A stretch of DNA of 56,769 nucleotides, taken from the IMG/VR virus record IMGVR_UViG_3300045973_000630, positions 1 to 56,769 of that record. One strand, given 5' to 3'. A program made the translations under genes and the position numbers. The notes below the pieces were generated by a model. That model did not search any database. It saw nothing but the letters and a program-made list of their open reading frames with translations, and was not told where the DNA came from. The DNA comes from a virus (Duplodnaviria; Caudoviricetes). Shown here piece by piece: positions 510 through 46,327 of the stretch. Positions within the stretch are counted from its first letter, which is position 1. Each line of letters opens with the position of its first letter.

Positions 510-830
510 TTATATTTTTGTTAGCAGCATACCACTCAATATTAATAGAATTCCTAGGACTTGTACACTAGAAAGTTTGGCATTAAAGAAAATAATTGGA
601 ATTATTAAATAAGTAATTACAATCATGGAGTCCCAAATTAAAGCTTTAAGCATCAAACTACTTGAATTGCTTTCAGATTTTGCAATTAATAACCATAATA
701 CATTTGTGAGAATTCCGCCAAGTGCTCCGATAACTAAGTACCATTTTGATAATTTAAGTGTCTCAGAATAAGACACTGAAGCTAAACAGACATAAAGAGC
801 AAAGCCTAAAAGATATTGTAAATATGTCAT
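510..830 (-). CDS. small 4-TM membrane protein, DMT/SMR-like
   Basis: 106 aa with four hydrophobic segments. C-terminal FFNAKLSSVQVLGILLILSG resembles the last helix of EamA/SMR proteins. Confidence 0.55.
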   Translation of the reverse strand: MTYLQYLLGFALYVCLASVSYSETLKLSKWYLVIGALGGILTNVLWLLIAKSESNSSSLMLKALIWDSMIVITYLIIPIIFFNAKLSSVQVLGILLILSGMLLTKI

Positions 831-1078
831 AGTTTAATACCGTGATACTTTAAAATCTTAAGGAACTTCTTTTCTAGGGCTGCAATAAGCTCTTCCGAAC
901 CTTCGAATTTCTCTAAAAGATGGGTTAGTTCTTTATCTTTATACCCATTTCGTCTAGCAGCTTCGAATATCTGAGATTTAATTTGTAATAATGCCTCTTC
1001 ATATTTAGATGCGTTTAAAGCTAAGTCATATTCTTCTTGTTCCGAGGGTAGATCGAATTCTATTAAGCCTTTGGTCAT
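827..1078 (-). CDS. hypothetical phage protein
   Basis: ORF with GAGG upstream and a 4-nt overlap with the next gene. Confidence 0.7.
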   Translation of the reverse strand: MTKGLIEFDLPSEQEEYDLALNASKYEEALLQIKSQIFEAARRNGYKDKELTHLLEKFEGSEELIAALEKKFLKILKYHGIKL

Positions 1079-1119: not shown

Positions 1120-1920
1120 TCATACAAACAACTTTCCAGTTAACGGAGGATGACTTTGATAATTAGTAAGTTTAAAGTGATCTTCTGTTATTTCAGTTAA
1201 ATCTGTAAACGGGATAATTTCTAGTTGAGTTCCCGGCATTGGCTCTCGAAGTATTTGCCCTCTTAAAATTTCAGTATGCGGTAAATAAATATGACTATCC
1301 CCCAAACAATGGGTCAGTATTCCGACTTGGTATCCGGTAAGTACTGCCATAATATGGGTTAACAACGCGTAATCTACAATATCTATTGGGACTCCGAGTA
1401 GCATGTCCCCGCTTCGTTGGTATAGTTGTGCATGTATTTTATCTTCTCGGATAAAAAATTGTATTAGCGGGAGGCAGGACGGTAGCGCACATCCGGTTCT
1501 TAAAGTTTGAGATACATTCCAATTACTAATTATTAGTCTTCTAGAGTTCGGATTTGTTTTTATTTCGTTAATTACCCAAGCTAATTGGTCAATACCTTCA
1601 TTATTAAAATTCCTAAAATGTTCCGGGTAACATCCTTTAATTGCGCCTGTTTCATCTGCCCAGTCTTTCCACCAAGGTTGAACTTTTATATGTAAGTTAT
1701 TTAAATTTGAAATTCCACCAATAAACCAAAGTATTTCTCTAATAGCATTTTTAAAGGCCATCTTTTTAGTAGTTAAAATTGGGAATTCTTTTGAAAGATC
1801 AAAAACCATTCGTTGGCTAACTAAACTAATAGTACCAGTTCCGGTTCTATCCATAATTTTAATACCATTATCTAAAATATCTTGGGCAAGTCTTTTGTAT
1901 TCTAAATCAGCTTGTGACAT
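1120..1920 (-). CDS. thyA: thymidylate synthase family protein, probably dCMP-specific (C5-methyl/hydroxymethyltransferase)
   Basis: DRTGTGT, FPILTTKK, EILWF, PNSRR, catalytic Cys149, YQRSGD and HIY. Asp180 stands in place of the conserved Asn (GVPID versus GxPFN). Confidence 0.9.
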   Translation of the reverse strand: MSQADLEYKRLAQDILDNGIKIMDRTGTGTISLVSQRMVFDLSKEFPILTTKKMAFKNAIREILWFIGGISNLNNLHIKVQPWWKDWADETGAIKGCYPEHFRNFNNEGIDQLAWVINEIKTNPNSRRLIISNWNVSQTLRTGCALPSCLPLIQFFIREDKIHAQLYQRSGDMLLGVPIDIVDYALLTHIMAVLTGYQVGILTHCLGDSHIYLPHTEILRGQILREPMPGTQLEIIPFTDLTEITEDHFKLTNYQSHPPLTGKLFV

Positions 1921-6676: not shown

Positions 6677-9277
6677 ATGTCAAAACGAATTATTACTCGC
6701 GAACAACTAATAGATCCCAAACTAAAAGGCTTAACTGCAATCTCGAGCGTAGTTAAACGAACTTTAGGACCAGGTGGACTATTAATTTTAATCGAAAGAG
6801 TTGGGCAAACACTAGAAGGACTTCCGCTCGGGCCTAAGATCACAAAGGATGGGGTAAGTGTCGCGGAAGAGTGCGCATCTATAGATAAGGCTGAAGATAT
6901 TATAATTCAAGCGGTTAAGGGAATTTGCCGTAAAACAGTTAGTACTGCGGGTGATGGCCCCCAACCACTTTATAGTAAAGTTCTTACTCCAAAAGGTTTT
7001 ATAGAGATGCGAGATGTAAGGGTTGGGATGGTTATCTGTGGTACTAACGGAACAGTTCAAAAAGTTTTAGGGGTTTTCCCAAAAGGCCAAAAAGAGATCT
7101 ATGAAGTAGAGATTCAAAATAAAGGAATAGTAGAATGTTGCGAAGACCATGTTTGGTCAGTTACTAAAAACAGTAATGGGGGCGCGGATTCTGTAAAATC
7201 TGTAGCGGAACTTATAAAAGATTATAAAAAAGAAGGTATACAGTCTACAAAATATAATTATTATATACCAAAAACTCCGGTTTACTTTCAAGAGAATACT
7301 GCGGAAATGCCCTTAGACCCATATTTACTTGGAGTTTTGTTAGGAGATGGTTGTTTAAAAGATGGTTCTAGTATTGAGTTAGGACTGGGAGTTAAAAAAG
7401 AACATATATTACAAAAATTAAAACCACCTAAGGGAATTAATACAAATATCCAATTTGTAGAGTCTAGGAATTATTTTAGAGTTAAATTTTCAGGTATTTC
7501 GGAGACCGGAAAATCAATGAGAGATTATGTAGAGTCTTTAGGATTAAGAGACGCAGGTAGTTTTACTAAGTTTATTCCAAAATCCTATTTATACGCCTCT
7601 ATTGAAACTAGATCCCAAGTCCTACAAGGATTAATTGATACAGACGGATGCGTTAACGAGCGAGGCTTATTTGAGTTTAGTACAGGCTCAAAAGAACTAG
7701 CAACGGACCTTCGAGACCTAGTTTTGAGTTTAGGTAAGACAGTTCATATGTATCTCAGAGATCGAAGTAATGACAATGCATTCTCAAAGACTCCCATGTA
7801 TAGAATTGGAGAATTAAAAGGATTTATACATGGAGATAAAATAAAAGAAATTAAAGCTACTGGCAGGTTTACCGAAATGCAGTGCATTAAAGTAAGTAAT
7901 CCGGATAGTTTATACATAACGGATAATTATGTAGTTACACATAATACCACAACTGCTATGGTATTAGGTGAAGCAATTGTAAACGAGACCGAGCGCATCT
8001 TAAAAGAAGATACTAAGCTTAACCCGCAATTAGTTAGAGAATCTCTAGAAGAGGCATCTTTACAAGTAATTAAGAAACTTAAAAAGATAGCAATTAAAGT
8101 TAATAATAATAAAACTATCCAACAAGTAGCTACAATCTCTGCAAACGGAGACGAATCTATTGGAGATATTATCGCAGCAGCTTTTGCGCATGTAGGTGCC
8201 GAAGGGGTTGTAACTGTAGATGAGGGACATACTTCAAAAGTTACCTTAGATGTAGTTGACGGATATCAGTTCAATAGGGGCGCCGAGGGTCGTACCGCGT
8301 TTTTCAATAATAGAGACGCAACCCAATTTGAAGCGGAAGATGCAGCATTAATTATTTATGATGGAAAATTATATAACTATACTCAATTAATTCCAGCACT
8401 TAAGTTATTAGCGGGAGTCGGTGCGGATGAAAAAGCATCTCGAAAGATGCCGCCCACTGTAATTGTGGCAAATGAGTTCAGTCCAGAAGTACTTCAGTTC
8501 CTGTTAATTCAAAAAACAGAGATGGGGATGACCTTCTGTCCAATCACTGGACCGAATACTACCCATGTGAGATCTGGGTACTATGATGATTTAGCAGTTT
8601 ACTCAGGTGGAACTAGACTTGGAAATGGAGCACGCAACCTTGAGTCTATTGAAATGGATGATATTGGCCTCGTAAAAAGAGCATTATCTGATAAATATAA
8701 AACTACATTATATGATGGGCAAGGTTCTGAAGAATCAATTCTAGAAAGAGTAGACCAATTAAAAGCTGCAAAAGCACAAGCAGAGTCCCCATATGACGCA
8801 CAAATCTTAAATGATAGACTTGCATCACTAACTAATGGTATAGCTAAAATTGGAGTTGGTGGAACTACTGAAATGGAAATTAAAGAGAAGTATGACCGAA
8901 TAGAGGATGCATTAAACGCAGCACGCGCGGCAATCGAGGAGGGAGTTGTACCAGGCGGTGGAACTACTTTATTAAGAATTGCGTTAGAGATGCCTGAGAA
9001 GACAGTTGGTCAAAAGATCCTAAAAGTAGCATTACAAGCTCCATTCTTTCAAATCTTAGAGAATATTGGTATTTTTAAAGAAGAAGCTCTAGAAGTGTCT
9101 AAAACTCTCGTTAAGAGTAAAAGTAAGGTTTATGATGCAAGAACTAAGCAGATCAAAAATGCGATGACTGCGGGGATTATAGACCCAGTAAAGGTGACTA
9201 GAACTGCCTTGGAGAACGCGGTATCAATAGCAACCCTATTAAGTACTTGCGGTGGAGCAATTACTTACGAAAAATAA
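6677..9277 (+). CDS. groEL: chaperonin GroEL (Cpn60) precursor containing an intein
   Basis: TLGPGG, ITKDGVSVA, AGDG...TTTA, VATISANGD, EDALNAARAAIEEGVVPGGG and GIIDPVKVTRTALENA. It is 537 aa after removal of the intein. Confidence 0.96.
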   Translation: MSKRIITREQLIDPKLKGLTAISSVVKRTLGPGGLLILIERVGQTLEGLPLGPKITKDGVSVAEECASIDKAEDIIIQAVKGICRKTVSTAGDGPQPLYSKVLTPKGFIEMRDVRVGMVICGTNGTVQKVLGVFPKGQKEIYEVEIQNKGIVECCEDHVWSVTKNSNGGADSVKSVAELIKDYKKEGIQSTKYNYYIPKTPVYFQENTAEMPLDPYLLGVLLGDGCLKDGSSIELGLGVKKEHILQKLKPPKGINTNIQFVESRNYFRVKFSGISETGKSMRDYVESLGLRDAGSFTKFIPKSYLYASIETRSQVLQGLIDTDGCVNERGLFEFSTGSKELATDLRDLVLSLGKTVHMYLRDRSNDNAFSKTPMYRIGELKGFIHGDKIKEIKATGRFTEMQCIKVSNPDSLYITDNYVVTHNTTTAMVLGEAIVNETERILKEDTKLNPQLVRESLEEASLQVIKKLKKIAIKVNNNKTIQQVATISANGDESIGDIIAAAFAHVGAEGVVTVDEGHTSKVTLDVVDGYQFNRGAEGRTAFFNNRDATQFEAEDAALIIYDGKLYNYTQLIPALKLLAGVGADEKASRKMPPTVIVANEFSPEVLQFLLIQKTEMGMTFCPITGPNTTHVRSGYYDDLAVYSGGTRLGNGARNLESIEMDDIGLVKRALSDKYKTTLYDGQGSEESILERVDQLKAAKAQAESPYDAQILNDRLASLTNGIAKIGVGGTTEMEIKEKYDRIEDALNAARAAIEEGVVPGGGTTLLRIALEMPEKTVGQKILKVALQAPFFQILENIGIFKEEALEVSKTLVKSKSKVYDARTKQIKNAMTAGIIDPVKVTRTALENAVSIATLLSTCGGAITYEK
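6959..7945 (+). mobile_element. class 3 intein with LAGLIDADG homing endonuclease (329 aa)
   Basis: Starts PQPLYSKVLTP. Block B CEDHVW, endonuclease motifs LLGVLLGDG and LQGLIDTDG, block F MQCIKV, block G VTHN|T. Confidence 0.92.
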
Positions 9278-9399: not shown

Positions 9400-11250
9400 T
9401 TGAATAAATCAAATAAACTATTATCGGATCTAGTTACCTTTAAAACATATGCACATTATATAGAACATCTAAGTAGACGCGAAACTCTCAATGAGGTTAT
9501 AACTAGAAATAGACAAATGCACCTAGACAAGTTTCCAAAGTTAGCAGATGACATAGTGAAAGCTTACGAGCAAGTTTATGACTTAAAAGTAATGCCTTCG
9601 ATGAGGTCACTTCAGTTTGGAGGAAGTGCAATTCAAAAAAATAATACAAGACAATACAATTGTAGCTTTTTACATATGAATCGAGTTAGGGCATTTGCCG
9701 AAACTTTATATCTTCTATTATGTGGGACGGGAGTTGGATTCTCAGTACAAAAACATCATATAAATCAGTTACCAAGAATTAGACATCCTAAACGAGAAAA
9801 TATACATATAATAAACGATAGCATAGAAGGTTGGGCAGACGCGTTAGATGCATTAATGACCGCATATTTTTATGGTGCAATTCGTCCAATTTTTGATTAC
9901 AGTCAAATTTCAGCAAAGGGTACATTATTAGTTACTACTGGATCAAAAGCCCCAGGGCCTGAGCCACTTAAAATAATGCTTGAGACGGTAGAGGCAAAAC
10001 TTAGAACCGTAATTGACCGAAAACTAACAACATTAGAGGTCCACGATTTAGAGTGTATTGCAGCAGAGTGTGTTTTATCCGGCGGAATTCGGAGGGCCGC
10101 ACTTATTAGTCTTTTTGATAAAGATGACGAAGATTTACTTACTTGTAAACAAGGCGAATGGTGGGTAAAAACTCCGTATAGAGCTCGTGCAAATAATAGT
10201 GCAGTATTGCTTCGTAGTGATACAACAAAAGAAGAGTTCCGAAGAGTATACGAGGCTTGCATTAAATCAAATGCTGGCGAACCTGGATTTATATGGACTA
10301 ATAATTTAGAGATGGGAAAAAATCCGTGCTGCGAAATAAGTGTGCTAGACCAAGAATTTTGTAACTTGACAACTACTAGTATTTCCTCACTTATTTCAGA
10401 AACAGATTTAATGAACAGAGTGCAAGCTTCATCATTTATTGGTACACTTCAAGCATCATATACAGACTTTCCGTACTTAGCAGAAAAGTGGAAACAGAAC
10501 TCAGAAGAAGAAGCATTATTAGGTTGTTCATTTACCGGAATTGCTGAATCACATATGTTATCTGCAGAAACTTTACAAACTGCAGCAAATGTAGTTTTAG
10601 ACACAAATTATAAATATGCAAAAATTTTAGGAATTAACCCAGCAGCTCGAGCAACTACAATTAAACCAGAGGGTTCCGCTAGTTGTGTGCTAGGTTCAAG
10701 TTCTGGTATTCATGCTCGCCATTCTAACTTCTATTTAAGAAGAGTACGATTTAATAAAGAAGAACCCTTAGCTAAATATTTAAAATTAGTAATTCCGGAG
10801 TTAATTGAAGATGATCTCTTTTCACAAAGAGATAGCGTAGTTACAATTCCACAAGAATCTCCCCCCAATTCGATAGTCCGAGAACAAGAGTCAGCATTAC
10901 AACTACTAAATCGCGTTCTGTTTTACAATGAGAATTGGATAAAACCAGGACATCGGTCGGGTAGTGATCGACATAATGTTTCGTGCACTATAAATTATAA
11001 GAGTTCCGAAATTGAAGAGCTATTTGAACAAATGTGGGTTAATAGAAATATTTATTCGGGTATAAGTTTATTACCAATGGATGATAGTATTTATCAGCAA
11101 GCCCCGTTTGAAGCTTGTTCTAAAGAACTTTTTGAAAAATATGAAAATTTAGTAAAAGATATTGATTTAACTAAGGTTCTAGAAATAGAAGACTCTACGG
11201 ATCTAACTGGGCAACTAGCTTGTTCTGGAATTTCTTGCGAAATTAAATAA
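9400..11250 (+). CDS. nrdJ: class II (B12-dependent) ribonucleotide reductase
   Basis: PSMRSL, YNC, LLLCGTGVGFSV, GGIRRAALI, GEPG, NPCCEI, TTIKPEG and C-terminal ACSGISCEI. No beta-subunit gene is adjacent. Confidence 0.92.
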   Translation: MNKSNKLLSDLVTFKTYAHYIEHLSRRETLNEVITRNRQMHLDKFPKLADDIVKAYEQVYDLKVMPSMRSLQFGGSAIQKNNTRQYNCSFLHMNRVRAFAETLYLLLCGTGVGFSVQKHHINQLPRIRHPKRENIHIINDSIEGWADALDALMTAYFYGAIRPIFDYSQISAKGTLLVTTGSKAPGPEPLKIMLETVEAKLRTVIDRKLTTLEVHDLECIAAECVLSGGIRRAALISLFDKDDEDLLTCKQGEWWVKTPYRARANNSAVLLRSDTTKEEFRRVYEACIKSNAGEPGFIWTNNLEMGKNPCCEISVLDQEFCNLTTTSISSLISETDLMNRVQASSFIGTLQASYTDFPYLAEKWKQNSEEEALLGCSFTGIAESHMLSAETLQTAANVVLDTNYKYAKILGINPAARATTIKPEGSASCVLGSSSGIHARHSNFYLRRVRFNKEEPLAKYLKLVIPELIEDDLFSQRDSVVTIPQESPPNSIVREQESALQLLNRVLFYNENWIKPGHRSGSDRHNVSCTINYKSSEIEELFEQMWVNRNIYSGISLLPMDDSIYQQAPFEACSKELFEKYENLVKDIDLTKVLEIEDSTDLTGQLACSGISCEIK

Positions 11251-11269: not shown

Positions 11270-11734
11270 ATGATAACAATTAAAAAGTTAAATTCATATT
11301 ATAGAAGAGCCTTGACAATAGCTGAGGACTCCCATGATCCGGATACTAAAGTAGCCGCACTTTTAGTAAATTCAGAATCTGGAGCAGTAATCGCAGACGG
11401 TTATAACGGTTTTGTAAGAGGTGCGGATGACGAGAATTTACCTAAAACAAGACCTGAAAAATATCAGTATTTTCTCCATTCTGAAATCAATATGATATGT
11501 AATGCAGCAAGAAATGGAATTAATACTTCAAATTGTATTGTTTTTTGTACACTATCCCCTTGCGCGCATTGCCTACGAGTTTTATATCAAAGCGGTATAA
11601 CTGAAATCTATTTTAAAGATCGGTATAGAGATTTTGATAAAGATTTAATATTAAAAGACTTAAATATAATAGTTACATCTATCGGGGAATTCAGTAAAAT
11701 TGCATTAACCGCTAACAAATTGGGGAATTCATGA
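11270..11734 (+). CDS. dCMP deaminase
   Basis: GYNG, HSE and SPCAHC zinc motifs. Confidence 0.92.
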   Translation: MITIKKLNSYYRRALTIAEDSHDPDTKVAALLVNSESGAVIADGYNGFVRGADDENLPKTRPEKYQYFLHSEINMICNAARNGINTSNCIVFCTLSPCAHCLRVLYQSGITEIYFKDRYRDFDKDLILKDLNIIVTSIGEFSKIALTANKLGNS

Positions 11735-12285
11735 AAATCGAAAAAGCTAGCATTATAACAGTAGATTTAGGGAATAATATATCAAATACTTTTGTAGTCG
11801 ACACTATAGAAGATACTACTCTATTAGTAAGTCACCCATTAGCTAAAGGTATTCTTATCAGAGTATCAAAAGATAAAGCTGATGGATCAATGGCTAAGAT
11901 TAAAGACTCGTCAGAACGCGGAATTGACTTTGCAAATTCTAATCGTAGATACTTAGACTTTAACGCGCTATTAGATCTTGACTGTATTTGTACTAGTTTT
12001 GTATTAACGAAACGAGTTACACCTAGACAAAAGTCAATAATAGCTAGCATCTGCGGAGTAGTTGCAGAAGTTAAATTTAATGATGATCTTAAAGAAACTA
12101 TGAAATTTATTACTAAAAATTCAACAATGTTAGATGAATTCAATTACTTATGGTTTACTAATTTCAGAAAGCTATTTTCTGGAGATCAACCAGTTTTTTC
12201 TAAGAAACAAAGAAGTGCAATCTTTAATATCGCTGGCTTTTTATTAGCTGAGTTAGAAAACCCAGTAGCATATTCTATTAAGTGA
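11731..12285 (+). CDS. hypothetical protein
   Basis: ORF coupled to the upstream gene by an ATGA overlap. Confidence 0.7.
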   Translation: MKIEKASIITVDLGNNISNTFVVDTIEDTTLLVSHPLAKGILIRVSKDKADGSMAKIKDSSERGIDFANSNRRYLDFNALLDLDCICTSFVLTKRVTPRQKSIIASICGVVAEVKFNDDLKETMKFITKNSTMLDEFNYLWFTNFRKLFSGDQPVFSKKQRSAIFNIAGFLLAELENPVAYSIK

Positions 12286-17175: not shown

Positions 17176-19962
17176 ATGACTTGGCCGACTAAATATAATT
17201 TAATAGATTCAGAAGAACTTATATCTAAAACTGATCAATATTTAATGAACGAAGATGGAACTCCCAAATTTCCGGTAATTTCGTTGGACACTGAAACTAA
17301 CGGACTAGCCTTGTATAAGACCTCAATAGTTGGTATATCCTTCTCAGTAGATCAATATCATGGATTCTATCTTCCATTATTAATATGGAAATCTGATCCA
17401 AATTCTAAAAAATTAAGAACAAAAGATGGAATTAAGCGAGAAGTTTTAACAGACGGACAACTATATTGTCCATGGACCGATACTTATTACGATGAATTTG
17501 TAAAACCACAAGATGTAAAGTACCCAGACTGGGTTCCGGCTATTATCGAACGTTGGTTTGGAAAGACTCAGTTATTTGCATGGAATGCGCCATTTGATAT
17601 AAACCATATTTTTATAAACTTTGGAATAGACCTAAAAAACAATTTAGTAGTAGATGGCGGATTATTAACTCATATTCTAAATGAAAATGAATCAGTCGGA
17701 TTAAAAGAGACCGCCAATAGATATGCTGCACAATTAGGATTTAATCAATATGTGCTGGCTACTGCTGAAAAAGAAGAATTAAAAGGTTCAATAATTCGTA
17801 ATGGAGGAACGGGAACTCAAGTATGGCGAGCAGATATAGAACCTCAAATGCATTACGCGGCTCAGGACACTATGTTGACTCATGGGCTTATACCTTTACT
17901 ATTACAAGATTTATATCAAGAACGTGGCGAGGATTATGCACAATTAGAATCTTGGATTTTCGATCAAGAAGTAATGCCCTTATGTAAAGAAGTAATAATT
18001 GATTTGAAACGAAATGGAATTTTCTTAGATGTTCCACATTTTGAAAAGTTAAGAGATCAGAATGCTAAAAAGTTAATAGAACTAGAAGATAACTTTATTT
18101 TAGCAATTACACCTTATTTAAAAGATTTCGAAAAGGGTAAATCTTTAGATGAAGCAATTTCGCACCAAAGACTAGTTAAAAAAATTATAGAGTTAGAAGG
18201 TTTAGAACTTCCACAAGTTTTAGATAAAAAGACTGGAGAGACCAAGGAAAGTTTAGCGAAGGCTGTAGTTAAGAAGACTTATGAAGAAACTCCGCATTGG
18301 ATTTGGGGTTATATCTTAGGTCAAGATGAGATTAAATACTCAGAAGCAAAACTAAATAAAATTAAACAAGAACTATATGAAGAAGTTGAAGGTCGAAGGT
18401 ATCGGTTTAATTTAGGATCCAGTGATCATTTAGTTTGGCTATTCTTTGATAAATTGAAGGAAAATAGACACTTATTTGAAAAAACAGCAGGATCTACCGA
18501 AGAAGAATGGAAACCATCATTAGATGCAGACCAAATCAAAACTCATTTATTACCAAAATATGCGTGGGTTAACTACCTTTTGAAGTATAAAAAGATTCTT
18601 AAGATTCAATCAACATATGTAGAACCAGCATTAGAACTACATATTGACGGATGGATGAGAGTAGATTATAAACAAAATGGAACTACCTCAGGTAGGTTTT
18701 CATGCGCTGGTGGATATAACTTACAGACACTTCCGCGGGTTGAGGATGAACAAGAAGCATTAGAACAATGTAGTAAATGTAATTCTAAGAATATTGAATT
18801 AGATGAGTATATTGAATGTGCCGCAAATGTTATATGTGGAGATTGTGGACATATCGAGCATGATATTACTAGACCTTCAGCAATTAAAAAGGGGTTCATA
18901 GCACCCCCGGGATATAAGATAGTAAATGCAGATTATGCAAGTCTTGAACCGCGGATTTTCGCTTATATTAGTGAGGAACCAGATATTAAGAAAGTTTATA
19001 GTGACGGACTCGATCTATACTCAAAAGTGTATTGTGATATGTTTGATAAAGCGGGTCAATATTCAGCAGATCCTAACGCAAAAAACTTCCTTAAAAAGGT
19101 TTACCCAAAGGGAAGAAAGCTAATAAAAGCAACAGTTTTGGGAATTCCGTATGGCGCAGGTAACGCCCAGGTCGCAACTATGACTGGACATACAATAAAG
19201 TCTACAAAACCAAATAAACATGGCATTTATGAAGAACGTCCAGATGTTGCAAAAGGAAAAGAACTTAGAGATTTATATCTAGCAACTTATCCTAGACTTT
19301 CTTATTATATGGAACGAATGGAGCGGCAAGCGGTAGAACTTGGATATGTACAATGTAAGTATGGAAGACGCCGGCATTTTGAATGGGCTAAACTAATTGG
19401 TGACTTTTTAGAGCAACTTCCTACTAAGAATGATTTTCATTATGATCAAATGTCTAAAGTAAATTCATTGGTTCAAGTAAGTAGTACTAAGTTACAAGGA
19501 ACTAGCGTTGATATTAAAGATATAAATTCAGGAAATATTATATGGTTGTTAACTGAAAAGAATCTGGAAGAGCTATGTAAAGTTTTAAATATTAATTTTT
19601 CAGTCGATAAATTCGGAAAAGATGGATGCAAGCAAAAAGGGGGTTGGTCATACATTAAGTCACTTTTAAAAGGTGATCTTAACAATGCTAAAAACTTCCC
19701 AATTCAAGGGTTAGCAGGATCTGTAACTAACATGGGTATGCTCGTAACTGCTAGGCTTTTTAAAGAACATAATATTGACGGTTGGATTTTTACCACAGTT
19801 CATGATGAGATTGGCTGTTATGTTCGAGAAGATCAGGCAGAATTGGGGCGAGAGTTGCTTCAAAATGGTATGGAAAATAATATTTTTACACTTCCACTAG
19901 CAAACGATGTTAAAATGATAGCAGAACCTATAATATGTGACAATCTCAGAGACTCTAAATAA
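17176..19962 (+). CDS. polA: family A DNA polymerase with 3'-5' exonuclease
   Basis: DTETNG, NAPFD and YAAQD (exonuclease). TTSGRFS, NLQ, ADYASLEPR (A), RKLIKATVLGIPYG (B), NFPIQG and VHDE (C). Confidence 0.96.
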   Translation: MTWPTKYNLIDSEELISKTDQYLMNEDGTPKFPVISLDTETNGLALYKTSIVGISFSVDQYHGFYLPLLIWKSDPNSKKLRTKDGIKREVLTDGQLYCPWTDTYYDEFVKPQDVKYPDWVPAIIERWFGKTQLFAWNAPFDINHIFINFGIDLKNNLVVDGGLLTHILNENESVGLKETANRYAAQLGFNQYVLATAEKEELKGSIIRNGGTGTQVWRADIEPQMHYAAQDTMLTHGLIPLLLQDLYQERGEDYAQLESWIFDQEVMPLCKEVIIDLKRNGIFLDVPHFEKLRDQNAKKLIELEDNFILAITPYLKDFEKGKSLDEAISHQRLVKKIIELEGLELPQVLDKKTGETKESLAKAVVKKTYEETPHWIWGYILGQDEIKYSEAKLNKIKQELYEEVEGRRYRFNLGSSDHLVWLFFDKLKENRHLFEKTAGSTEEEWKPSLDADQIKTHLLPKYAWVNYLLKYKKILKIQSTYVEPALELHIDGWMRVDYKQNGTTSGRFSCAGGYNLQTLPRVEDEQEALEQCSKCNSKNIELDEYIECAANVICGDCGHIEHDITRPSAIKKGFIAPPGYKIVNADYASLEPRIFAYISEEPDIKKVYSDGLDLYSKVYCDMFDKAGQYSADPNAKNFLKKVYPKGRKLIKATVLGIPYGAGNAQVATMTGHTIKSTKPNKHGIYEERPDVAKGKELRDLYLATYPRLSYYMERMERQAVELGYVQCKYGRRRHFEWAKLIGDFLEQLPTKNDFHYDQMSKVNSLVQVSSTKLQGTSVDIKDINSGNIIWLLTEKNLEELCKVLNINFSVDKFGKDGCKQKGGWSYIKSLLKGDLNNAKNFPIQGLAGSVTNMGMLVTARLFKEHNIDGWIFTTVHDEIGCYVREDQAELGRELLQNGMENNIFTLPLANDVKMIAEPIICDNLRDSK

Positions 19963-36207: not shown

Positions 36208-36813
36208 GTGTCACGTAAATTTAATAAAGAAGATATTGAACGATTTCATGATTACGGGATCTATATACCAAATAGAGTAATTTATATGGGATCTGAATCT
36301 TATGATTTAGACTCAAATGAATCGGGCACTAATGGGTTAATGGCAGAACGTATCTTAAAGAACTTAACGATGTTAGATACACTCTCCCAAGAGCCGATCA
36401 CAATTATATTAAATAATATAGGTGGAGATTTTTACCATGGATTAGCTATTTTTGATGCAATCCAGACTTGTAAATCGCCAGTAACTATAAAGGTTTTTGG
36501 ACATGCTATGTCTATGGGCTCAGTAATATTGCAAGCAGCAGATAGAAGAGTTATGGCAGCAAATGCTAAGCAAATGATACATTATGGTACTTGCGGAATG
36601 AACTCGCACGCTAAGACATTTCAAAAGTGGGCCAAAGAATATGAACGACTAGATAGTTGGATGGAAGACTTATATTTTAAAAGAATCTTAGAAAAACATC
36701 CAGATTTTCCAATATCTAAGTTGAAAAAGATGTTAGATCATGACTCGTTCTTAACCGCACAAGAATCCGTAGATCTAGGATTGGCTGACGAACTTTTAAA
36801 AGTAGGAGAATAA
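36208..36813 (+). CDS. clpP: ClpP-family serine protease
   Basis: RVIYM, ITIILNNIGG, GLAIFDAI, AMSMGS (Ser), MIH (His) and DSFLTAQESVDLGLAD. Confidence 0.9.
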   Translation: MSRKFNKEDIERFHDYGIYIPNRVIYMGSESYDLDSNESGTNGLMAERILKNLTMLDTLSQEPITIILNNIGGDFYHGLAIFDAIQTCKSPVTIKVFGHAMSMGSVILQAADRRVMAANAKQMIHYGTCGMNSHAKTFQKWAKEYERLDSWMEDLYFKRILEKHPDFPISKLKKMLDHDSFLTAQESVDLGLADELLKVGE

Positions 36814-36816
36814 CTA

Positions 36817-37575
36817 ATGTCATTAACTAAGATTTTTGAAGACATTTTAAATAAAGAACAACCTAAGTCTAGCAGTTTAGGTCAATTCAAAATTAAACCC
36901 TCAACATTAGGGTCTAAGTGTCTTCGTAAAGTCTATTATGTTTCAGCAGGTGTTTCTGAAGACTTTGAGTTTGACCTCAGCGGTAAGCGCCGAATGAAGC
37001 TAGGTGACTATGTTCATTCTATGCTTCATGACATTTATGATGAAGCAGGGATTCTTATAAAGTATATTAATCCGGATGGAACTACTAATTTAGATTGGAA
37101 AAACCCAACTAAAATTGATTATGAGTTTCCGTTATCTTCAGAAGACCTTTTTATCAAACGCGGGAAGATCGATGCGGTAATAGAGATTAATAATGAACTT
37201 TGGATTGGTGAGTATAAATCTATAAATATGAATGGATTTAGTAACTTAACCCAGGCTAAACCTGAGCATATAATCCAAGCAGTTGTTTATTTATATGTAT
37301 TTAATCAGATGTTAGCAAGTGGCGCATTTTCACATATAGAACAATTAGCTAAGTATAAAGCAGCAAAAGGTGTTAAATTTTTATATTTAAATAAAGATGA
37401 CACAGCATTAAAAGAGTTTACCCTAACTAATTGTGATGAAATCTTTGGTCAAATAGTAGAGAAAATAATGGTAATTAGACAAGCTTATGAAACCAAGCAA
37501 CTACCTGGAAAAACTCCTGACTTTTGTAAAACTTGTAATTATAGAACAAAATGTCAAAATAACTATAACATTTAG
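36817..37575 (+). CDS. Cas4-like PD-(D/E)XK exonuclease
   Basis: CLRK, GxxVH, GKID, EYKS, QxxxY and C-terminal CKTCNYRTKC. Confidence 0.85.
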   Translation: MSLTKIFEDILNKEQPKSSSLGQFKIKPSTLGSKCLRKVYYVSAGVSEDFEFDLSGKRRMKLGDYVHSMLHDIYDEAGILIKYINPDGTTNLDWKNPTKIDYEFPLSSEDLFIKRGKIDAVIEINNELWIGEYKSINMNGFSNLTQAKPEHIIQAVVYLYVFNQMLASGAFSHIEQLAKYKAAKGVKFLYLNKDDTALKEFTLTNCDEIFGQIVEKIMVIRQAYETKQLPGKTPDFCKTCNYRTKCQNNYNI

Positions 37576-37995: not shown

Positions 37996-38850
37996 TTGGA
38001 TAAAATGAGTAGTATGACTAATGATTCTAATTTTAAATTTATAATTCCCGCTGAACTTGAGAAATCTGCCAATGGAGACTGGAAAGTCCGCGGATTAGCC
38101 TCTACTAATAATTTAGATAGACAAGGTGAAAGAATCCTTCAAGAAGGTCTAGATTTAACTCCGATTGATCAAAAACGCGGAGTTATAAACTATGATCATT
38201 TAAGCGGACCTGAAAATACTATAGGTTTGCTAGACGGATATACTCAAACAAATAAAGGCTTATATATAGAGGGAAGACTCTTTAAAAATCATACTAAAGC
38301 GAAAGCTATATATGAAATCATGAGTTCTTTAAATAAAGCCGACCATGGTCGAATGGGTATTTCAGTTGAGGGTAAGATAATTGAACGAGATCCGCTCAAT
38401 CCATCAGTAATCAAAAAGTGTCGAATTAATGCAGTAGCTTTGACACTTAATCCAGTAAATGTAGATACTTATGTCGATATTGTGAAATCTATGAATGCAA
38501 GTCAAACAGTAGAATTTAATTCAATAGAGCAAGCGCAAAACCTAGAAGTTAAGTCCGAAGAGCCGATGTTCACATCTACTCAAGTAGTTTCTATTATAGA
38601 AAAAGCATTAGCAATTACTACCGGAAATGCTTTGGCACCAAATACTAGAACTGGTGGAGATGCTTTAGGCCAAGAAGAATTAGATTCTAAGAAAAAGCTT
38701 AAAAATAAACCAAAAGAGCTTTTTAAGTCTCAAATGCTAGAACTATTAGATCAACTTCAAAGTTTGCACCCAGACTGCTCTAGATCGGAGCTTTGGGCTG
38801 CAATCTCAGAGCGTTTATCAACAAAATTTCCACAAATACACAATAATTAA
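37996..38850 (+). CDS. prohead protease (true start may be ATG 38005 or 38014)
   Basis: GLAST...DRQGE, NYDH, GLYIEG, GISVEG and ALTLNPVN. Confidence 0.9.
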   Translation: MDKMSSMTNDSNFKFIIPAELEKSANGDWKVRGLASTNNLDRQGERILQEGLDLTPIDQKRGVINYDHLSGPENTIGLLDGYTQTNKGLYIEGRLFKNHTKAKAIYEIMSSLNKADHGRMGISVEGKIIERDPLNPSVIKKCRINAVALTLNPVNVDTYVDIVKSMNASQTVEFNSIEQAQNLEVKSEEPMFTSTQVVSIIEKALAITTGNALAPNTRTGGDALGQEELDSKKKLKNKPKELFKSQMLELLDQLQSLHPDCSRSELWAAISERLSTKFPQIHNN

Positions 38851-44917: not shown

Positions 44918-45525
44918 TGTATAAGTTAAGCCGAGAACTTGAAGATATATGTACGGTCATGAAAACTGCATATGACCGTAATTTAATTACTCCAAGAGAT
45001 GGGAATATCTCTATTAAAAAGGGTAATTTTATGTATATAACTCCAAGCGGAGTGCTTAAACATACTTTGAAGCCACAAGATATGGTTGGATTTAAATTCG
45101 AGGATGGAAGTACTAGTATAGAGATTTCTAAGAAACCTTCGGGTGAACTTGAAATGCATACAAAACTACAATTTGTAGATCTAGCAGAGCAACGATGTGT
45201 AATACATATGCACCCAACTTTCACAATTGCTGCAATGCATAAGGGATTTAATTTACAAGATATTGCAAAAGATTTCCCGGAGTTATCTAGATATACTAGG
45301 GTAGCTTACAATGTAAGAACTTTACCAGTTACCTCAAGTATTTTAGCATCAGAAACTTTAAGTGCACTAACCGATAGCTCGGAAAGACTTCAATTTGATA
45401 TTGTGGGACAAGCAAATCATGGAGTATGCGCGGTAGGCACTTCTGTTAGAGAAGCTTTCGAACATATTGAAAGACTAGAACATTGTTGTAAGATCGTAAT
45501 ATTATCCGGAGTTTCTTCAAAATAG
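44917..45525 (+). CDS. class II aldolase/adducin family protein
   Basis: DGNIS, ITPSG, KPSGELEMH, HMHP and NHG. Confidence 0.9.
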   Translation: MYKLSRELEDICTVMKTAYDRNLITPRDGNISIKKGNFMYITPSGVLKHTLKPQDMVGFKFEDGSTSIEISKKPSGELEMHTKLQFVDLAEQRCVIHMHPTFTIAAMHKGFNLQDIAKDFPELSRYTRVAYNVRTLPVTSSILASETLSALTDSSERLQFDIVGQANHGVCAVGTSVREAFEHIERLEHCCKIVILSGVSSK

Positions 45526-45532
45526 GAGTTTT

Positions 45533-46057
45533 ATGCTTTATTCGAAAAGACTAAAAGATAGAGTTAAGTTTTCAATTAAAGATTTAATTCCAAATAGAGT
45601 GCTAAGATTCTTTAGAAATCTTATACGAGCTTGTCAGTATTTTAAACAAGGTTGGGGCTCAAAAGACTGGGATTATTCATTTATTTTTGACGACTTAATC
45701 TTTAAGTTAAAACGGGTTGAAGTTGATCTCAAAAATGATATTTATCATGAACCCGAAAAGTTAGAACTTCAGTCAATAAGACTTGTAATTAAATTATTAG
45801 AAAAGTATAATACTGATAGGTATTATTATTACCGTAATTTACACGAGGCAAAATGGGGTGTTGGTGAAATGATTTTTTCAAAAGATGAGCAACCTAGAGT
45901 ATCTATTTTTAGAAAAAATGTAATTCCTGGAGAAAACGAAGAACAAGAACGTAAAGAGTTTTTAATTGCGGTTAAAGCAGACGCCGAATGTAGACGAAAA
46001 GACTTAGACTTAGCATTTAAGATAATACAAAAACATTGTCAAACTTGGTGGACTTAA
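45533..46057 (+). CDS. hypothetical phage protein
   Basis: WGSKDWDYSF...C-terminal WWT; ribosome binding site present. Confidence 0.75.
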   Translation: MLYSKRLKDRVKFSIKDLIPNRVLRFFRNLIRACQYFKQGWGSKDWDYSFIFDDLIFKLKRVEVDLKNDIYHEPEKLELQSIRLVIKLLEKYNTDRYYYYRNLHEAKWGVGEMIFSKDEQPRVSIFRKNVIPGENEEQERKEFLIAVKADAECRRKDLDLAFKIIQKHCQTWWT

Positions 46058-46105
46058 CTCTTACAAAACTCAAAATTATAGATATAACACTTAAAGCGGG
46101 GATTT

Positions 46106-46327
46106 ATGATTGAAAAGTCTTGTAAATGCGGAACTTTAAAAAAGAACTTTAAATTTGATATTGGTACTAATTTTGTAGCAGAGTGTTGCTTAGAAAATGG
46201 GTATACAGAAATAGGTGAACTAGTTTCAGATGTAGAAGCTCGCAATGCTGCAATTGCCGAAGAAGCGCGTAAACTTACTGTAATGAATCCTAGAGTAGTT
46301 AAAAAGACTATAAAAAAGCCAGTTTAA
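46106..46327 (+). CDS. hypothetical protein
   Basis: GGGG upstream; CxC...CC. Confidence 0.6.
   Translation: MIEKSCKCGTLKKNFKFDIGTNFVAECCLENGYTEIGELVSDVEARNAAIAEEARKLTVMNPRVVKKTIKKPV

Follow-up and report, generated by a model that had tools for sequence, protein, structure and literature searches.

A natural Asn177-to-Asp thymidylate synthase homologue in a phage genome: a candidate deoxycytidylate C5-methyltransferase

A thymidylate synthase-family gene and its surroundings

The window, by which we mean the whole stretch of DNA analyzed here (56,769 nucleotides), is an entire IMG/VR record, IMGVR_UViG_3300045973_000630; it is linear, comes from a phage of the class Caudoviricetes and is about 49% complete according to CheckV. 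Close to its first letter, on the minus strand, lies an open reading frame (ORF) of the thymidylate synthase (TS) family (Table 1). PF00303 is matched over the full length of the protein with 266.7 bits against a gathering score of 24.3 (residues 7–264 of 266 are covered), PHROG 160 is matched with an E-value of 3.3e-84, and a HMMER comparison with solved TS sequences returned 127 distinct ones, the best of which was 7ta9_A at 1.1e-63. The ATG start codon occupies positions 1918–1920, with the stop codon of an exonuclease gene (1922–1924) and the hexamer GAGGTG (1925–1930) just upstream, and no ORF on the opposite strand reaches 50 aa across 1120–1920. The GC content of the gene (0.350) is close to that of the window (0.343), and there is therefore no compositional sign of a recent transfer.

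Table 1. Features of the window discussed in the text; residue numbers are those of the window protein unless E. coli is named.
Feature	Position	Strand	Evidence
Candidate dCMP C5-methyltransferase, ThyA family, 266 aa	1120..1920	-	PF00303, PHROG 160, solved-structure match
Cys149 codon TGC, E. coli Cys146 (catalytic nucleophile)	1474..1476	-	alignments
Leu150 codon CTC, at the E. coli His147 position	1471..1473	-	alignments
Asp180 codon GAT, at the E. coli Asn177 position (pyrimidine-specificity residue)	1381..1383	-	alignments
Leu146 codon, E. coli Leu143, retained	1483..1485	-	alignment
Asp172 codon, E. coli Asp169, retained	1405..1407	-	alignment
Two-residue insertion Thr142-Gly143 ahead of the catalytic loop, relative to ThyA	1492..1497	-	common to the P0002 cluster
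dNMP kinase, core gene of the phage group	19937..20617	+	PHROG 139, E 3.1e-36; PF21448, 47.5 vs 27.1 bits
Family A DNA polymerase	17176..19962	+	PHROG 17, E 3.6e-84
dCMP-deaminase-family enzyme, HSE and PCAHC zinc motifs intact, core gene	11270..11734	+	PF00383, 67.5 bits
Ribonucleotide reductase, immediately ahead of the deaminase gene	9400..11250	+	PHROG 367, E 1.5e-116
Two small ORFs (106 aa, 83 aa)	510..830 and 827..1078	-	without counterpart in G004

The rest of the window carries genes for a ligase, the exonuclease, a helicase, a GroEL with a probable intein, a ribonucleotide reductase, a dCMP-deaminase-family protein, a primase-helicase, a family A polymerase, a dNMP kinase, SbcCD and the structural proteins. 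The phage dNMP kinase and polymerase on which an earlier note on this DNA had relied are thus both present. The same note called for a search for a dCTPase, a dihydrofolate reductase (DHFR) and a second thyA or thyX; this came back empty, as the TS-family gene is the only one in the record and no ThyX, second thyA, DHFR, dUTPase/dCTPase, MazG or PRA-PH was found in the roughly 49% of the genome that the record represents. At this level of completeness, the half that is not covered could carry a canonical thyA, a thyX or a gp42-like gene. Of the two small ORFs beside the TS gene, the 106-aa one is membrane-protein-like, with an EamA-like match of 24.2 bits that falls under the Pfam cut-off of 28.2.

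The deaminase-family protein finds its best solved structure in 7fh4 (E 1.4e-20) and also matches 4p9c and 1vq2. The first of these is the dCMP/dCTP deaminase of PBCV-1, described as the closest structure to a 5-methylcytosine (5mC)-selective enzyme, and the structures listed for one such protein, mSCD-B5, are 7fh4, 4p9c/d/e and 1vq2 (bioRxiv 10.1101/2024.12.05.627091). The window deaminase is 33% identical to that of phage Xp12, and it could act on dCMP or on a 5-methyl nucleotide. The ORF that follows it (11731–12285) gave nothing usable in Pfam, the PHROGs or the ESM Atlas. Over the whole window, the observed/expected ratio lies within 0.87–1.21 for each of the 16 four-base palindromes, none of them being clearly avoided; the ratio for CpG is 0.84.

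The active site read against published rules

Two positions of ThyA (given, like all those compared below, in E. coli numbering) have drawn particular attention in earlier work. The N177D change was reported to turn ThyA towards dCMP with 5-methyl-dCMP (5mdCMP) as the product, and positions 177 and 147 came out as the top two differentially conserved positions between cytosine-modified and unmodified viral contigs in a set of 433 virome TS sequences (Yang 2021, PMC8670742). When natural N177D homologues were assayed in vivo, five of the seven made 5mdCMP and two did not; the TS homologue of Xp12 makes 5mdCMP as well (bioRxiv 10.1101/2024.12.05.627091). These reports bear out what the earlier note had stated as background, namely that the N177D change shifts ThyA towards dCMP and that the 5mC of Xp12 is made at the nucleotide level. 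A further study lists twelve residues within 6 Å of C5, associates an acidic residue (Asp or Glu) at position 143 with the verified hydroxymethylases and the hydroxylase, and gives D169N as the mark of the 5-hydroxy-dCMP synthases (NAR 2026, PMC13326640). In our reference table, T4 gp42 has Asp143, Thr147 and Asp177, the gp42-like enzyme of RB69 has Glu143, Thr147, Asn169 and Asp177, the SP8 enzyme (from a phage with a 5hmdU genome) has Asp143, Asn147 and Asn177, and both Xp12 and PaMx74 have Pro147 and Asp177. The rule for position 143 is not a strict one, because Xp12 aligns there with Asn and not with a hydrophobic residue.

Residues 167–184 of the window protein read YQRSGDMLLGVPIDIVDY. 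In the alignment with E. coli K-12 ThyA, Cys149 falls on C146, Leu150 on H147 and Asp180 on N177, with the Cys and the Asp 31 residues apart, which is also the E. coli spacing; the position and spacing of the Asp and the replacement of the His by Leu are therefore just as the earlier note had read them, and so is the Asp at the equivalent position of T4 gp42, which our alignment extends to the Xp12 enzyme. The same register was obtained in HMMER alignments with solved TSs, where PPCH stands against PSCL and VPFNIASY against VPIDIVDY in the window protein. The rest of the scaffold is canonical, as had been proposed. Retained are R21, E58, W80, W83, Y94, R126, R127, A142, L143, C146, Q165, R166, S167, D169, G173, H207, Y209 and a ThyA-like C-terminus, so that the catalytic Cys, the phosphate-binding Arg residues (R21, R126, R127 and R166), E58, Y94, H207 and Y209 are all in register. 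Nine of the twelve residues within 6 Å of C5 are those of E. coli; a change of C168 to Gly is neutral (Gly also occurs in Asn-type ThyAs), and H147L and N177D are the only differences left.

Held against the enzyme classes above, the protein departs from canonical ThyA in having Leu150 for His147 and Asp180 for Asn177, the residue by which ThyA pairs with uracil at O4 and N3. It agrees with the Xp12 type in the combination of Asp177 with a residue other than His at 147 (Asp180, Leu150) and of a non-acidic residue at 143 with Asp169 (Leu146, Asp172). On the basis of this signature, which fits the published rules, we lean towards a ThyA-derived deoxycytidylate C5-methyltransferase, or 5-methyl-dCMP synthase, as the product of the gene, in line with the suggestion of the earlier note. 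The predicted product would be that of the Xp12 deoxycytidylate 5-methyltransferase. The Xp12 enzyme (MT664984, CDS 45326–46195) and that of PaMx74 share with the window protein the PF00303 domain, Asp177, a non-His residue after the Cys, Asp169 and a deaminase-family gene in the genome. There are also clear differences: Xp12 has Pro147, Asn143, Leu165 and a shortened C-terminus, whereas the window protein has Leu147, Leu143, Gln165 and the full ThyA C-terminus. The TS, deaminase and DHFR genes of Xp12 are adjacent, while in the window 9.3 kb separate the TS gene from the deaminase gene, the two lie on opposite strands, and a DHFR gene was not found. A similar difference holds for the virome N177D homologues found by MetaGPA and by IMG/VR mining, with which we compared the protein by their published description. 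They are of the same class, with Asp177, a changed 147 and a deaminase-family gene on the contig, but for 70% of the modified contigs a deaminase gene within 3 kb of the TS gene is reported (bioRxiv 10.1101/2024.12.05.627091), a proximity that the window lacks.

A further parallel is found in two engineered proteins, E. coli ThyA N177D and L. casei TS N229D, which, like the window protein, carry the Asp on a canonical ThyA scaffold; these mutants are reported to switch to dCMP and to give 5mdCMP, as cited in Yang 2021 (PMC8670742). The window protein differs from them in being natural and in having, in addition, H147L, P145S, F176I, I79W and the two-residue insertion. The enzymes of Xp12 (24%) and PaMx74 (22%) and T4 gp42 (23%) are only 22–24% identical to the window protein, compared with 37% for E. 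coli ThyA, and none of its close relatives is a characterized enzyme, which counts against our preferred reading.

T4 gp42 belongs to the same superfamily and shares with the window protein the catalytic Cys and Asp177, and one could imagine a dCMP hydroxymethylase of the gp42 kind, the 5-hydroxymethyl-dCMP it makes possibly serving as a base for hypermodification. Besides the shared Asp177, this would agree with the two-residue insertion, located where Xp12, PaMx74 and T4 gp42 also have extra residues, and with the TS homologues in phages bearing related deaminases, 21 of 24 of which are gp42-like with D143/T147/D177 (see below). We nevertheless regard it as quite improbable. The window protein has Leu at 143, neither Asp nor Glu, and gp42 has Asp143 and Thr147; the protein ends in a full ThyA C-terminus (...GKLFV), a tail that gp42 does not have; the identity to gp42 is low; and PHROG and Pfam scans of 50 window ORFs matched neither a glycosyltransferase nor any other tailoring enzyme. 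Between the two modifications that the earlier note had offered, 5mC is hence favored, and 5-hydroxymethylcytosine is disfavored by Leu143 and the ThyA C-terminus. The 5-hydroxy-dCMP synthases of the RB69 gp48 type are likewise of the same superfamily and carry Asp177, but RB69 has Glu143 and Asn169 where the window protein has Leu143 and Asp169; Asp172, which occupies position 169, does not fit this class.

Conservation of the signature and its place among relatives

A profile built from two sequences was searched against 1.84 billion representatives and gave 19,060 matches at E ≤ 0.001, with the protein's own cluster at 573 bits and the next match at 257 bits. The nearest relatives form one 90%-identity cluster, made of the representative P0002 and four members, which are 59% identical to the window protein and come from other contigs. 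C149, L150, D180, L146 and D172 are invariant in all six members of this clade, and since the five cluster sequences on other contigs also carry Cys-Leu and the Asp, Asp180 is not a sequencing slip. Beyond the P0002 cluster no further clade member was found in 5.8 billion clustered proteins, the 1.84 billion representatives, IMG/VR and the JGI metagenomes. Identities to other proteins are 45–46% for cellular ThyAs of Bacteroidales, 37% for RB69 td and 36–39% for three ThyA-like representatives with Asp177 and Pro147. The best matches in phage records were 42.9% identical for the TS, 28% for the polymerase and 30.5% for the capsid protein, and no cultured relative with a known DNA chemistry was among them.

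The two substitutions go together. In a set of 151 rows, consisting of the best 150 of the 19,060 matches and P0002, all five rows with Asp177 lack His147 (two have Leu, three Pro), and all 146 rows with Asn177 have Cys-His; six of the latter first seemed to deviate and turned out to be one-residue misalignments. The five Asp rows fall in four 50%-identity clusters and therefore do not stand for five independent events. A pattern of 5/5 against 146/146 speaks for a coupled functional switch and against drift.

This covariation bears directly on the most conventional explanation, that of an ordinary or relaxed-specificity TS making dTMP from deaminase-supplied dUMP, in which Asp180 and Leu150 would be tolerated drift or a sign of dual dUMP/dCMP use. 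Much about the protein looks the part: it scores 240.7 bits with the TS equivalog TIGR03284, above the cut-off of 108.35, it is 45–46% identical to cellular Bacteroidales ThyAs, its catalytic and folate-site residues are ThyA-like except for two, the window holds a dCMP deaminase able to feed it with dUMP, and it is the sole TS gene found in the half-complete record. We consider this explanation unlikely all the same. The protein stays under the cut-offs of all six TS equivalogs of the NF series (NF002497, NF002496, NF002499, NF002495, NF010393 and NF002498; for NF002497, 261.1 vs 327 bits). His147, kept in every Asn177 row of the 151-row set, is lost in every Asp177 one, and H147L together with N177D is shared by all six clade sequences, although identity among them falls to 59%. 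The published effect of N177D is a preference for dCMP (Yang 2021, PMC8670742), and close phage relatives manage without any TS gene, as described below.

The trees differ in where they put the clade. In a tree of 116 rows, the clade is sister to the Asp-bearing P0121 within Asn-type ThyAs; in one of 53 rows, it is sister to the Asn-bearing P0132. In both unconstrained trees the window clade sits with ThyA sequences and apart from Xp12, and the AU test does not reject a topology that unites the nine Asp177 rows (p = 0.58). Given the discordant trees and this p value, we make no claim that an independent origin of Asp177 is demonstrated. Of the alignment and tree that the earlier note had proposed, the alignment has settled the register of the signature, and the two trees have given the clade different neighbors.

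A wider search yielded 65 loci, of which 56 read His147/Asn177, one Ser/Asn and two His147/Asp177 (one of these on a doubtful alignment), with six unreadable. In the same material, an IMG/VR contig of 239,841 bases (L042) combines His147 and Asp177 with Glu at the Tyr94 position, a combination seen in no other row. The metagenome loci L009–L018 belong to a divergent TS subfamily with the motifs WW(K/Q)PWAD, NCH and PHN(W/F)IQYW, which has Asn177 and His147 together with Pro142 and Ile143.

The genomes around related deaminases tell where the gene stands in this phage group. The 38 IMG/VR records with the nearest relatives of the window deaminase were searched (39 loci, with L086 left out), and 24 TS-family genes were found in 23 of them; 22 of these genes have Asp177 (21 gp42-like with Asp143/Thr147, one partial) and two are canonical. 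Three records are true relatives of the window phage, with capsid proteins that are 82% (G003 and G004) or 72% (G008) identical; G004 is 82% complete, and G008, at 118.9 kb, is 100% complete, which suggests a full length of about 115–120 kb for the genome of the window phage. None of the three has a TS-family gene. The absence of the gene from true relatives is a new observation of this work.

The window and G004 are syntenic for the ligase, the exonuclease, the helicase, GroEL, the reductase, the deaminase (56% identical) and the ORF after it. The gap between the ligase and exonuclease genes holds unrelated small ORFs in G004, and the EamA-like ORF, the 83-aa ORF and the TS gene in the window. 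With the TS gene missing from syntenic relatives, we see it as an accessory cassette at a variable spot and not as part of a co-inherited module. The dNMP kinase is present in all three relatives, a dUTPase-family gene in none of them, and MazG only in G008. Since kinase and deaminase are core genes of phages that have no TS gene, they are no evidence for a dedicated pathway, and the deaminase in particular was rejected as such.

Some of the TS matches in the deaminase-bearing phages are unusual in themselves. Seven gp42-like matches from IMG/VR (L167, L168, L170, L173–L175 and L177) contain one in-frame TGA, L170 contains a TAG in addition, and L169 lacks a TGA but has both a TAG and a TAA; these in-frame stops could reflect recoding, a frameshift or an intron. 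One record of 167,515 bases with direct terminal repeats (G021) has both a canonical Asn177/His147 TS (L162) and a gp42-like Asp177 homologue (L184), in the manner of the T4 pair.

Proposed reaction and the fate of its product

The proposed reaction is modeled on that of ThyA and its N177D/N229D mutants. Cys149 would add to C6 of dCMP, and Asp180 would select dCMP over dUMP by pairing with cytosine at N3 and at the 4-amino group, with Leu150 standing in for the His that serves the water network at O4 of dUMP. The methylene of CH2-THF would then go onto C5. Leu146 and the closing C-terminus are expected to exclude water, so that the folate donates a hydride, and a methyl group and dihydrofolate result. 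The 5mdCMP formed may pass through the phage dNMP kinase and a host NDP kinase, and the phage polymerase may incorporate the modified dNTP. If the enzyme works in this way, the phage DNA probably contains 5-methylcytosine, which could replace cytosine partly or fully and could protect against restriction; some of the methylated nucleotides may also end up as thymidine nucleotides through deamination.

We hold the proposal of a substituted genome, raised in the earlier note, less firmly than the reading of the enzyme itself. The kinase and polymerase that it calls for are present; against it are the lack of a dCTPase, DHFR or MazG in the record and the fact that kinase and deaminase are core genes in TS-less relatives. 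The deamination step could even be the principal outcome: dCMP would be methylated, the product mainly deaminated to dTMP or dTTP, and the enzyme would serve to make thymidylate without passing through dUMP, so that virion DNA would contain hardly any 5mC or none. There is precedent for such a step, as neighboring enzymes of the dCMP-deaminase family turn 5mdCTP into dTTP, a role proposed for Xp12-type phages (bioRxiv 10.1101/2024.12.05.627091). By its matches to 7fh4, 4p9c and 1vq2, the window deaminase belongs to the broad subfamily that includes the 5mC-selective deaminases, and a dCTP-exclusion enzyme was not found in the record. To our mind, this outcome has only a small chance of being the right one. 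In Xp12 deamination coexists with full 5mC substitution, and 5mC selectivity is described as polyphyletic among these deaminases and not readable from sequence (both bioRxiv 10.1101/2024.12.05.627091). The deaminase is, moreover, a core gene in the TS-less relatives, and its ancestral substrate was for this reason presumably plain dCMP.

If the gene does encode a 5-methyl-dCMP synthase, the automatic label "thymidylate synthase" would be wrong and the phage DNA would carry 5-methylcytosine, with consequences for restriction sensitivity, for methylation-dependent defense and for the behavior of the DNA in sequencing and cloning. The principle is not new: viral N177D TS homologues have been surveyed and assayed, and earlier work has already described N177D combined with a changed 147 and tested it in other viral proteins of this kind (Yang 2021, PMC8670742; bioRxiv 10.1101/2024.12.05.627091). 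The window protein is an isolated new member of this class, and a ThyA-like enzyme with so few active-site changes would be good material for studying the switch in pyrimidine specificity. The relatives without the gene, one of them complete, have the kinase, the deaminase and the polymerase, and together they offer a natural test of whether a single ThyA-derived gene is enough for cytosine modification. We may go one step further and suggest, as a tentative and rather doubtful extension, a comparatively recent and independent conversion of a ThyA into a dCMP methylase (with Leu147, not Pro), which as a one-gene plug-in would have made a TS-less phage lineage 5mC-containing by recruiting the existing kinase, polymerase and deaminase without a dCTP-exclusion enzyme.

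Two other parts of the window deserve a brief mention. The GroEL-like chaperonin (866 aa; 6677–9277, plus strand) has an insertion at residues 95–423 that includes a LAGLIDADG domain and is probably an intein; residues 1–94 and 424–865 abut in the GroEL of G004, and the insertion is thus specific to the window phage. In the structural module, two different head-maturation-protease-like genes (36208–36813 and 37996–38850, plus strand) flank a gene for a Cas4/PD-(D/E)XK-like exonuclease (36817–37575, plus strand).
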